From assembly GCA_016181935.1 (NCBI GenBank), contig JACOYI010000004.1, forward strand, positions 5,292 through 69,291: a DNA stretch of 64,000 nucleotides, read 5' to 3'. The position numbers were made by a program, and so were the translations under genes. Within the stretch, counting starts at the first letter, position 1; every line of letters begins with the position of its first letter. Below are positions 48,598 to 50,216 of the stretch, one piece after another. The notes under the pieces were generated by a model. That model did not search any database. It was not told the origin of the DNA and saw nothing but the letters and a program-made list of their open reading frames with translations. The stretch is from Candidatus Niyogibacteria bacterium. GTDB taxonomy: Bacteria; Patescibacteriota; Minisyncoccia; HO2-45-28.

Positions 48598-48617
48598 TTA
48601 TGTATATATGCCCCACC

Positions 48618-48656
48618 CCACTCCCAAAGGGTAGTCCTTTGGGTGGATACTGTGGA
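48618..48656. repeat. REP element (CCCAAAGGGTAGTCCTTTGGG + TGGATA/TGTGGATAAC extension), 3' flank of RAYT
   Basis: cccaaagggtagtcctttgggtggatactgtggataac. Confidence 0.8.
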
Positions 48657-48659
48657 TAA

Positions 48660-49385
48660 CTATGCATACTGCTCTCTACCTAAAAGATTCTCCTCCGGAA
48701 CCGAAGAAAACTGGATCCATTCTGTAATGAAATCCTCAAATTCCCCCGATTCGTTGAAATACTCCGGAAAGGCGTTTTGAGTAAGAACGATTCTCTCGGG
48801 CCGCTTCTTTCCCGCGTAATCCGCATAGCTCGAATATCCGTAGCGATTCAAAAAATCCCGCGCCCGCTCCGTGTCCTCCACCCCTCTTTCCCGCCATTCC
48901 GGATACAAAAATTTCAAGGGATTTAAATGAATATAGGAAAAAAGGTACTTCAAATACTCGTCGCTCTCCGTGTGCCGCGCCTGAAACGTCCCCTCGAACA
49001 GTCCGCCGGTCCGTCCGTATCTCTTATTATAGTACATCGAATACGCGGTCGAGACCTTCCCCATGAATTTCGTGATGGAATTCTCGGCTGTTTCCTTCAA
49101 AAGAAGGTGAAAATGGTTCGGCATCAGGCAATAGGCGCCGACAGCAACCAACTCCTCTCCCTTATCCACCTTCTCCAGTTCATCGAATTTCCCAAAGGGT
49201 AGTCCTTTGGGAAACTGATCGCGTATATTGACCGGCTTCGAGCCGTTGCAAAGATACAAAAGCGCTAAAAACCGCGAGTAGTCATTGGGATTCTCAAAAA
49301 TCGATCGCTTGTCATTCCCGCGATTAAAAACGTGATAGAACTCTCCGATTGAAAATTCGAATTTTCGCTCCATCCACCCATTCAA
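48660..49385 (-). CDS. REP-associated tyrosine transposase (RAYT; IS200/IS605-like Y1 HUH transposase)
   Basis: 241 aa; YHVFNRGNDKRSIF...AYCLMPNHFHLLLKE (HUH motif) and downstream Tyr region; flanked on both sides by inverted REP copies; internal half-REP at 49185-49206. Confidence 0.8.
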   Translation of the reverse strand: MNGWMERKFEFSIGEFYHVFNRGNDKRSIFENPNDYSRFLALLYLCNGSKPVNIRDQFPKGLPFGKFDELEKVDKGEELVAVGAYCLMPNHFHLLLKETAENSITKFMGKVSTAYSMYYNKRYGRTGGLFEGTFQARHTESDEYLKYLFSYIHLNPLKFLYPEWRERGVEDTERARDFLNRYGYSSYADYAGKKRPERIVLTQNAFPEYFNESGEFEDFITEWIQFSSVPEENLLGREQYA

Positions 49386-49390
49386 TCACC

Positions 49391-49498
49391 CATAATTCCC
49401 AAAGGGTAGTCCTTTGGGTGGATAAACTGTGGATAACTTCCTCCAAAGGGCCGCTTTTTGGGAAAGTTATCCACCCAAAGGACTACCCTTTGTATATT
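49391..49498. repeat. BIME-like composite REP (two inverted REPs around an internal hairpin), 5' flank of RAYT
   Basis: CCCAAAGGGTAGTCCTTTGGGTGGATAA-actgtggataactt-cctccaaagggccgctttttgggaaag-TTATCCACCCAAAGGACTACCCTTTG. Confidence 0.85.
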
Positions 49499-50216
49499 AA
49501 AGATTGGAGAGGGCGGTTTTTAGGTCTTGAGAGGAGTCGGGGTTCGAAGCAATGCCGTCCTGCAAAACCTTGCGGGCTTTCGCTGTATCTTTCATGATAT
49601 CCACATAAAACTCGTAGGTTTTGTAATAGGGATAGACACTATTCGGCTCGGCGGCGATGCCTGCCAAAAGATACTGCTCCGCTTTTGCGTTATCCTTCAA
49701 ATACCATCCGTACAAATCGCCAAGATTCAAAAATGCGGTGGAGCTTTTGGGTCGCAAAATCGTAGCGAATTTCCACGCTTCGATCGCCCCATTATAATCA
49801 TTTGCCGCTTTCCGGAAAATACCGAGATTTAGCCATCCTTGAAGGTAGTCATAATTCTCGGTGAGTGTCTTTATTACCGCGGTAATTTTTGAAACCGCAT
49901 CTGCGTTCGCGTCTGCCGGAATCTCGCGTGTTAAACTCGGCATCTGCGCCTTAATCAATTCTTTTACGTCTTCTTCGGAGGCCGAATCTTTTGCGTTTTC
50001 TTCAGAAATTAGATTTTTCAACCCCTCATCTGTTGTCGTTCCTTTTCTTAAAGAATCGCTATTCGGAATCCGGTCCCAAATATACCAACCGCTGATGCCA
50101 AAAGCGGCTATAAGAAAAATTACAAAAACAAGCATCCGAGACGTACTTAACATGACTTTTTCTTCGGGCGCTGTTTCTTTGGGGTCTATAGATTCCATAG
50201 AATCCAATCCTATCAA
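49497..50216 (-). CDS. TPR-repeat protein with N-terminal membrane anchor
   Basis: 239 aa; TM helix then TPR-like repeats (AFLNLGDLYGWY.., NSVYPYYKTYEFYV..). Confidence 0.55.
   Translation of the reverse strand: MIGLDSMESIDPKETAPEEKVMLSTSRMLVFVIFLIAAFGISGWYIWDRIPNSDSLRKGTTTDEGLKNLISEENAKDSASEEDVKELIKAQMPSLTREIPADANADAVSKITAVIKTLTENYDYLQGWLNLGIFRKAANDYNGAIEAWKFATILRPKSSTAFLNLGDLYGWYLKDNAKAEQYLLAGIAAEPNSVYPYYKTYEFYVDIMKDTAKARKVLQDGIASNPDSSQDLKTALSNL

Follow-up and report, generated by a model that had tools for sequence, protein, structure and literature searches.

The 64,000-nucleotide stretch of DNA analyzed here (the window; contig JACOYI010000004.1 of assembly GCA_016181935.1, positions 5,292 to 69,291) encodes a protein that, judging from its sequence, is a Y1 HUH tyrosine transposase and that resembles the REP-associated tyrosine transposases (RAYTs), where REP stands for repetitive extragenic palindrome. 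The gene is bracketed by a family of palindromes that is over-represented in the intergenic DNA of the window, and one complete copy of the palindrome lies inside the coding sequence. The host is confirmed as Candidatus Niyogibacteria, of the Parcubacteria/Patescibacteria group, in agreement with the preliminary description of the locus, which had spoken of a genome of the candidate phyla radiation (CPR) type.

The transposase and the palindromes around its gene

The RAYT-like gene occupies positions 48660-49373 on the reverse strand and encodes 237 amino acids (aa), from ATG 49373 to the stop codon TAG at 48660-48662. The surrounding open reading frame (ORF; 48660..49385, reverse strand) yields 241 aa if counted from a TTG start, which is the product length given in the preliminary description; the shorter form is the likelier coding sequence (CDS) because the homologs, as well as the NCBI protein that is 100% identical to the product ("transposase [Candidatus Niyogibacteria bacterium]"), use the MERKF start at ATG 49373. 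The motifs by which the Y1 HUH core had been recognized, YHVFNRGN (residues 13-20) and AYCLMPNHFHLLLKE (residues 80-94), are present, and a profile search matched residues 81-153 to the Pfam family Y1_Tnp (PF01797) with 33.1 bits, compared with a gathering threshold of 23 bits. The HUH motif is H87-F-H89 and the candidate catalytic tyrosine is Y147, within YIHLNP; H87, H89, Y147 and N151 are invariant in the alignment of homologs (120 of 120). More than 5,000 homologs were found; the 120 listed share 51-78% identity with the window protein, and all those among them with a named source belong to lineages of the Patescibacteria group.

Among the NCBIfam models, the sole match was REP_Tyr_transpos (NF047646), a curated RAYT equivalog with a cut-off of 80 bits, at 39.1 bits; no IS200-type or other non-RAYT model of NCBIfam matched at E <= 1, and all 21 members tested in a sample of the family likewise matched REP_Tyr_transpos alone. 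The AlphaFold (AF2) model, for which the 120-sequence alignment served as the input, has a predicted local distance difference test (pLDDT) score of 87.1 and a predicted template modeling (pTM) score of 0.87. In a Foldseek comparison with the Protein Data Bank (PDB), the top match of this model is 4ER8, the E. coli TnpAREP with a REP hairpin (E 1e-5), followed by the TnpA proteins of ISDra2, IS200 and IS608, and the predicted structure fits the TnpA fold, a four-stranded sheet plus helices. The relationship to TnpAREP was reached in the PDB by fold comparison only; searches of the PDB with the single sequence and with the 120-sequence profile gave no significant match, the hits being ISDra2 at E 0.2 and a sugar-binding protein that was spurious.

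In a pairwise alignment with E. coli RayT (sequence from NC_000913), weak as it is (18% identity over 82 residues, E 0.068), HFH falls on HMH (59-61) and YIHLNPLK on YIYINPVK (115-122), which places H87/H89 opposite H59/H61 and Y147/N151 opposite Y115/N119; in the crystal structure of E. coli TnpAREP (PMC3479197), these four residues are the two HUH histidines, the catalytic tyrosine (Y115) and a metal ligand (N119). The counterpart of E. coli RayT H123 is F155, so that the E. coli metal site is preserved only in part. The window protein contains an insertion of ~30 residues between the helix 29-41 and the strand 76-83, modeled with a pLDDT of about 60, and an 85-residue C-terminal domain that is conserved among the homologs and for which a Pfam search with the C-terminal 87 residues gave no match.

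The REP unit of the window has the core AAGG-N5-CCTT and, near the RAYT gene, takes the form CCCAAAGG-GTAGT-CCTTTGGG. Downstream of the gene, the single REP reported earlier at 48618-48656 was located at 48620-48649 (core 48623-48643), beginning 11 nucleotides (nt) past the stop codon. Upstream, the double REP resembling a bacterial interspersed mosaic element (BIME), which had been placed at 49391-49498, was recovered as an inverted pair at 49393-49499. This doublet, similar to a BIME or a REP doublet forming a hairpin (REPIN), consists of a proximal arm at 49393-49425 (hairpin 49398-49418) and an inverted distal arm at 49467-49499 (hairpin 49474-49494); the 33-nt arms are 91% complementary and separated by a 41-nt spacer, and as single-stranded DNA the doublet folds at -33 kcal/mol (z about -8). 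Both the 3' REP and the proximal arm are oriented like the copy inside the gene. Perfect AAGG-N5-CCTT hairpins number 19 in the window versus 0.9 expected; with near-matches included, there are ~21 hairpin sites, 18 of them intergenic. The 21-nt core CCCAAAGGGTAGTCCTTTGGG has 12 matches in the window with at most three mismatches, compared with none in 100 shuffles. The flanking 16-mer CAAAGGGTAGTCCTTT, with 9 copies in 64 kb, is the commonest 16-mer of the window; the corresponding RAYT criterion of Bertels et al. (2017) is a flanking 16-mer highly over-represented in the genome, here counted in the 64-kb window. A search of Rfam with the hairpins gave no match.

For comparison, 80 loci were fetched from contigs representing one genome per species; the counts out of 81 given below add the window itself and include a second Niyogibacteria genome, L081. 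In 57 of the 81 loci, a palindrome in the RAYT flanks recurs within the locus, and in 39 it does so on both sides of the gene. These flank palindromes are species-specific and share the common plan xAGG-N5-CCTx; the 5' REP typically starts about 25-50 nt upstream of the ATG and the 3' REP lies at or over the stop codon. The possibility that the right arm of the 5' REP (CCTTGnn) is the -35 box of a near-leaderless RAYT promoter was rejected given that, by eye, it fits L001, L014 and L056 but not L021, L026 and L031.

The RAYT gene gives a single tblastn match in the window, and its neighbors encode a tetratricopeptide repeat (TPR) protein, a DUF4878-like protein and large surface proteins. In L081, a RAYT protein with 78% identity is encoded at the syntenic position, and in both genomes the RAYT gene follows the same two genes, one for a TPR protein and one for a large surface protein; because of this synteny and the presence of one copy in 64 kb, the RAYT appears to be domesticated and not an insertion sequence (IS). 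A single copy is not universal, since two different RAYT-family paralogs, L040 and L052, lie in one metagenome-assembled genome (MAG; JBAYME01). In L082 (1999-3255, compared with 48660-50198 of the window), the RAYT gene is on the opposite side of the TPR gene in an otherwise similar neighborhood (a TPR protein, a ~160-aa protein and a ~1200-aa protein), and the RAYT together with its REPs may have moved locally. Some 140 to 40 nt before the start codon of the L067 RAYT gene, the N-terminus of another, truncated RAYT (MRKQSIVSGEYYHIYNRGVDKR...) stops directly at a REP copy, which suggests a past rearrangement or deletion at the REP.

A REP hairpin conserved within the coding sequence

The palindrome inside the RAYT gene, at 49188-49214 on the reverse strand, occupies codons 54-62, which encode FPKGLPFGK. 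Previously described as a half-REP at 49185-49206, it is in fact a complete palindrome, TTTCCCAAAGGGTAGTCCTTTGGGAAA, whose stem measures 11 bp and whose loop measures 5 nt, and a conserved feature of the family. It folds at -12.4 kcal/mol (z -5.4), and 23 nt are identical between it and the 5'-proximal REP copy. In the structural model, the encoded peptide is predicted to form a low-confidence surface loop between the helix 29-41 and the strand 76-83, that is, it sits in the ~30-residue insertion that is not found in E. coli RayT. An unbiased comparison of the RAYT CDS with the rest of its own locus, which searched for 13-mers common to both, yielded residues 52-62 in ~20 species. At least 23 species examined at the DNA level have a REP at these codons, without any shift of the frame, which is always xAA-GGN-NNN-NCC-TTx, and the sequence itself differs from species to species (for example, TCCAAGGGCTCCCCTTGGA in L001, CTCCAGGAAGGCCGGGCCTTCCTGGAG in L007 and CGGAGGACGGTCCTCCG in L078). 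The layout of the clade comprises three REPs, one 5' of the gene, one inside it and one 3' of it, and the same layout was seen in all four extra homologs that were chosen without sight of the DNA.

The in-gene copy evolves in concert with the REPs of its own genome. Between the in-gene 21-mer and the best-matching site in the 300-nt flanks of the same gene there are 1.4 mismatches on average, compared with a median of 8.2 mismatches to the flanks of other species, and the own-genome match equals or beats every other in 18 of 19 loci. Across 19 in-gene hairpins, 46 stem cells are changed on both sides, versus 17.1 in shuffles (none of 500 shuffles reached 46), and the covariation score is 0.442, versus 0.128 for shuffled and at most 0.158 for slid controls; these 19 sequences had been picked for having the hairpin, a choice that inflates the share of paired cells. 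The in-gene stems are nearly all Watson-Crick, G-U pairs being very rare. A generic palindrome-quality score did not discriminate the loop from other CDS windows, as AT-rich genes raise the background.

The palindrome is also visible in the protein sequence. Of the 120 closest homologs, 111 show the loop imprint xGx[PTSA]x, and the residues beside it come in the pairs Q-L (39), K-F (28), E-F (24) and R-S (3), with Q-F seen once and K-L never; the first four of these pairs are those specified by complementary codons (CAA/TTG, AAA/TTT, GAA/TTC and CGA/TCG, respectively).

The comparison of the two Niyogibacteria genomes illustrates the concerted change. The L081 REP, CCCCGAGG-GGAGT-CCTCGGGG, differs from that of the window by a change from AA/TT to CG/CG in the stem and by one loop base, and the L081 in-gene copy has the same stem and loop changes as the L081 flanking copies. 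The L081 REPs at 9078-9120, 9893-9976, 10162-10182 and 10722-10751 are the counterparts of those at 50258-50297, 49393-49499, 49188-49214 and 48620-48649, respectively, in the window. The in-gene copy of L081 is a perfect hairpin, whereas the three extragenic copies at orthologous positions are half-converted. The extragenic hybrids of L081 (CCCAAAGG...CCTCGGGG, CCCCTAGG...) look as if they were midway through the stem change. The in-gene copies of L002 and L013 have an outer stem that is unlike the extragenic REP yet self-complementary, at 12-14 bp.

On a neighbor-joining tree built without the loop columns, the REP-bearing genes are scattered, with decayed remnants (QNKPL, QGATL and KGQTL) between them, and this distribution points to an in-gene element that is ancestral and has been repeatedly lost. 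The E. coli rayT gene contains no REP within the CDS and has no 10-mer in common with its own BIME flanks, and a literature search found no report of a REP conserved within a RAYT gene.

Other repeats and features of the window

Beyond the immediate vicinity of the RAYT gene, a REP at 50258-50297 (TTATACACAGGTTATCCACC plus hairpin), located between the TPR gene and a 1211-aa gene, carries a double flank resembling DnaA boxes, and the orthologous position in L081 also holds a REP. At 57580-57620 lies a diverged copy that likewise has two boxes (TTATCAACAGTTTATCCACC plus hairpin), and at 58443-58552 a second REPIN-like inverted doublet (46-nt arms, 18-nt spacer, -34 kcal/mol). A compact doublet at 13755-13814, which has 25-nt arms with 100% complementarity and a 10-nt spacer (-30 kcal/mol), is devoid of DnaA-box-like flanks; similar doublets are found at 10774-10826 and 15191-15264, and a single REP copy at 4380-4400. 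For the doublets at 49393-49499, 58443-58552 and 13755-13814, the folding energies range from -30 to -34 kcal/mol and z from about -8 to -9.5. Variant hairpins comprise a doublet at 6281-6316 (AAGGGTTACCCTT / AAGGGTAACCCTT) and copies with other loops at 8405-8436 (AAGGGGAGTCCTT, with a GGAGT loop at 8406) and 10741-10771 (AAGGGTTCCCCTT). The GGAGT loop at 8406 is of the type that dominates in L081, and because of this match several REP sub-families appear to coexist.

In the window REPs at 48-58 kb and in L081, the hairpin adjoins two 9-mers, 11 nt apart, that match TTATNCACA or TTATCCACC, with the order TTATNCACA-GN-TTATCCACC-hairpin; the flank of the extragenic REP reads TTATCCAC. Immediately 3' of the RAYT stop codon lies a perfect DnaA-box-like 9-mer, TTATCCACA (48651-48659, reverse strand), followed by a partial second box, TATCCACC, that adjoins the 3' REP. 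In the 5' doublet, such 9-mers are located on the reverse strand at 49417-49425, overlapping the end of the proximal hairpin, and at 49428-49436, just beyond the proximal arm, and on the forward strand at 49467-49475, in the distal arm. The window REPs at 4-15 kb have none of these 9-mers, and among the hairpins of all loci a box heptamer lies within 25 nt of 8%, versus 1% for random positions. The motif AGTTATCCACA occurs in the related CPR loci (1.08 Mb) at 0.55 per 10 kb versus 0.076 expected, an enrichment of about 7-fold; it is generally intergenic in these genomes and belongs to the repeat unit in the two Niyogibacteria only. As a RAYT-specific signal it was rejected: no more than 80 nt separate ~12 of its 59 sites from RAYT ends, but given the intergenic character of the motif this is a small excess over the intergenic background.

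The perfect 9-mer TTATCCACA is found 9 times in 64 kb versus about 0.5 expected, at 214, 27516, 38447, 48651, 49428, 54425 and 58480 (all on the reverse strand) and also at 24547 and 48332; seven of these sites are intergenic and oriented as the genes. A replication origin at 48-50 kb was considered and rejected, since there is no reversal of GC skew there and the neighboring genes are not dnaA or dnaN; the skew is negative in all 2-kb bins but one, and the cumulative skew falls almost monotonically over the window.

Several other features were recorded outside the REP family. The 23S rRNA gene (32374-35985, reverse strand) is 3612 nt long versus 2925 nt for the Rfam model and encloses an ORF for a LAGLIDADG_1 homing endonuclease (33200-33685, reverse strand, E 1e-22); this ORF points to an intron or insertion such as those known from the rRNA genes of CPR bacteria. 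Between 33846 and 35375 there are also short CTGGAAGCTGG-like repeats. Two repeats are unrelated to the REPs: a 72-nt direct repeat with 94% identity (10051-10122 and 10613-10684) and a 76-nt repeat with 71% identity (10933-11008 and 11971-12046), the latter probably representing paralogous ATPase-like coding sequence.

Interpretation and relation to known systems

We put at roughly 80% the probability that the locus is a RAYT/REP system, that its transposase belongs to a Patescibacteria-wide Y1 HUH clade, and that this system mobilizes the REPs and keeps the in-gene copy in step with them. By analogy with E. coli TnpAREP and the TnpA proteins of IS200/IS605, the RAYT would recognize the short REP hairpin when the DNA is single-stranded, would cut and rejoin the DNA beside the hairpin by means of Y147 and an HUH-bound metal, and would thereby spread and homogenize the REPs of intergenic DNA, both singlets and inverted doublets. 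The in-gene copy would be recognized by the same RAYT and kept matched to the REP population through RAYT-mediated or recombinational conversion; it could serve either as a selection-protected template of the REP that re-templates the population, or as an autoregulatory site on the RAYT gene or mRNA. The anatomy of the locus, its conservation, the covariation and the concerted evolution are direct observations, whereas the binding and cleavage of REPs by the RAYT and the purpose of the in-gene copy are inferred. Recognition or conversion at the DNA level is preferred to a purely RNA role because the loop bases evolve in concert too, because the stems are nearly all Watson-Crick, and because the outer stems of L002 and L013 differ from the extragenic REP yet stay complementary. 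The proposal that the in-gene hairpin is a functional cis element, either a master copy that seeds REPs or a self-limiting sensor, is tentative and may well prove wrong.

The preliminary description had presented the locus as the canonical RAYT-plus-REP arrangement and the RAYT as the likely propagating enzyme of the repeats. The tie between the enzyme and the repeat family is supported by the fold match to 4ER8, the catalytic residues and the flank palindromes in 57 of 81 loci, and the activity would be that of the analogous enzymes; a Y1 HUH gene bracketed by REPs is indeed present, but the term "canonical" does not hold, given the score of 39 versus 80 bits and the hairpin foot without GTAG or CGTC. 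These are two defining features of the characterized RAYT families that the window system lacks, and they belong to a set of observations that speak against the RAYT/REP interpretation. The window protein lies under the curated RAYT cut-off, and its similarity to E. coli RayT, on which the placement of the HUH residues and the catalytic tyrosine was checked, is slight. In characterized RAYT systems, a conserved tetranucleotide, GTAG or CGTC, marks the 5' foot of the REP hairpin, whereas the REPs of the window have neither: the stem is preceded on its 5' side by ..TT/CT on one strand and by ..ATCCAC on the other, and GTAG occurs solely within the loop GTAGT. The covariation analysis drew on hairpins selected in advance. 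The in-gene copy is found in about 14-20 of the 81 species-level loci, many having flank REPs only, and thus is not obligatory. Finally, the stems inside the gene show no consistent advantage over the flanking ones, in a comparison that used a triloop definition ill-suited to 5-nt loops, so that passive homogenization from REPs ~200 nt away could account for the similarity; the expectation of a better stem inside the gene than outside was accordingly dropped.

The in-gene REP might be a passenger, that is, an old in-frame insertion into a tolerant loop that stays similar to the other copies through ordinary gene conversion and plays no role. Other bacteria are known to have REPs within genes, at tolerant loops of the protein (PMC3733652), the RAYT loop is modeled with low confidence (pLDDT about 60), many lineages have flank REPs but no in-gene copy, with remnants such as QNKPL and QGATL, and the stems inside the gene are no better than those in the flanks. 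Nevertheless, such a passenger appears somewhat unlikely given that the same codons and frame are kept over deep, scattered lineages, that the peptide imprint persists in 111 of the 120 closest homologs, that the outer stems in L002 and L013 have diverged from the extragenic REP and are still self-complementary over 12-14 bp, and that the L081 in-gene copy is perfect while three extragenic copies are half-converted. Another suggestion is that the hairpins act mainly as RNA (mRNA stabilizers, processing sites or attenuators), with the in-gene copy throttling translation or truncating the mRNA and transposition playing no current part. The loops, and not the stems alone, evolve in concert between in-gene and extragenic copies, and the paucity of G-U pairs fits a constraint on both DNA strands; furthermore, no T-run follows the hairpins and they have no Rfam match. 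The position of most REPs between genes, with 35 of 48 ORFs on one strand in a crude gene map, the strength of the in-gene stem (-12.4 kcal/mol) and the action of E. coli REPs in 3' untranslated regions (10.64898/2026.03.23.713779) are compatible with an RNA role, which on balance we regard as improbable.

An autonomous IS of the IS200/IS605 type, with the flanking hairpins as its left and right ends, would share its fold and motifs with the IS200, IS608 and ISDra2 TnpA proteins and would explain hairpins in direct orientation on both sides of the gene; it is very hard to reconcile with a single gene copy in the window and hairpins dispersed without the gene, with a syntenic position in L081 despite only 78% protein identity, with the absence of an adjoining tnpB, with a RAYT model as the only NCBIfam match at E <= 1, and with the motif YxxxN, as in TnpAREP. 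Equally remote appears the notion that the repeats near the RAYT are mainly DnaA-binding modules, an origin or a titration site, next to an incidental Y1 gene. Ten DnaA-box-like 9-mers with at most one mismatch do lie at 48.3-50.3 kb, their variable position, at which C, A and G are all present, fits TTATNCACA, and AGTTATCCACA is about 7-fold enriched in related genomes. However, there is no skew reversal at 48-50 kb, the neighbors are the TPR, DUF4878-like and large surface proteins and not dnaA or dnaN, the REPs at 4-15 kb and most REPs of other species lack boxes (8% overall within 25 nt), and it is the hairpin, not the box, that tracks the RAYT across species.

Among the known systems, the E. 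coli TnpAREP/RayT REPtron (4ER8; PMC3479197, PMC8266576) shares with the window system the Y1 HUH fold with aligned HUH and YxxxN motifs, a single-copy gene (counted here in the window) flanked by REP/BIME copies over-represented in intergenic DNA, and a C-terminal extension after the catalytic helix. The window RAYT differs in the ~30 residues that are inserted between its helix 1 and the strand with the HUH motif, in its 85-residue C-terminal domain without a Pfam match and in the Phe at the position of H123; its REPs are short perfect stems of 8-11 bp with 3-5-nt loops, without a bulge or a GTAG foot, and the E. coli rayT CDS is free of REPs. With the REPIN-RAYT systems of Pseudomonas and Enterobacteria (PMC3116915, PMC5581495), the window system has in common inverted REP doublets that fold as long hairpins, a commonest flanking 16-mer that is repeated (genome-wide there, counted in the window here), and a lineage-specific REP sequence, next to a gene that is single-copy and vertically inherited there and that here is present once in the window and syntenic with that of L081, but it is distinguished by its Patescibacteria host, the three-REP layout with one REP within the ORF and the local fusion of REPs to DnaA-box-like 9-mers. 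The TnpA proteins of IS200/IS605 (IS608, ISDra2) have the same catalytic core, and the gene likewise has a hairpin on either side that is presumed to be recognized in single-stranded form; unlike in these elements, the window gene is not multiplied with its ends, the hairpins form one dispersed family and not two distinct ends, YxxxN stands in place of the IS200-type helix motif, and the locus keeps a syntenic position from one species to another.

Intragenic REPs and the Rickettsia palindromic elements (PMC3733652) resemble the in-gene copy in being in-frame palindromic repeats translated in a likely loop; those elements are sporadic in unrelated genes, whereas here the host gene encodes the cognate transposase, many species have the palindrome at one conserved site and in one frame, and the sequence tracks the REPs of each genome. 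Y1 subclass 2.1 with a C-terminal Bac_DnaA_C domain (Quentin et al. 2018; PMC6006769) is a Y1 relative likewise tied to DnaA-type recognition with the relation reversed: there, the protein is DnaA-like and the flanking repeats do not resemble DnaA boxes, whereas the window repeats carry DnaA-box-like 9-mers and the RAYT has no detectable DnaA_C domain. The available parts of the RAYT surveys PMC6006769 and PMC5581495 include no Parcubacteria or CPR hosts, and a literature search found no paper linking RAYTs with CPR/Patescibacteria. The system is best filed as a distinct Patescibacteria RAYT clade, with the conserved, co-evolving REP within the ORF as a previously undescribed trait.

The locus bears on three questions of RAYT/REP biology: the copying of REPs, the specificity between enzyme and repeat, and the retention of a transposase that does not replicate itself. 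The present observations extend the RAYT/REP association to the ultra-small CPR genomes, which are expected to tolerate little junk, and the REP within the ORF, co-varying with the extragenic REPs, makes the question of who templates whom testable. In the K-F / Q-L / E-F rule, a DNA palindrome has clearly shaped the sequence of a protein, and the rule provides a simple marker for such genes in metagenomes. If the hairpin within the ORF is indeed functional, selection on the gene would shield this copy from decay, and the long-term matching of enzyme and repeat would be explained.

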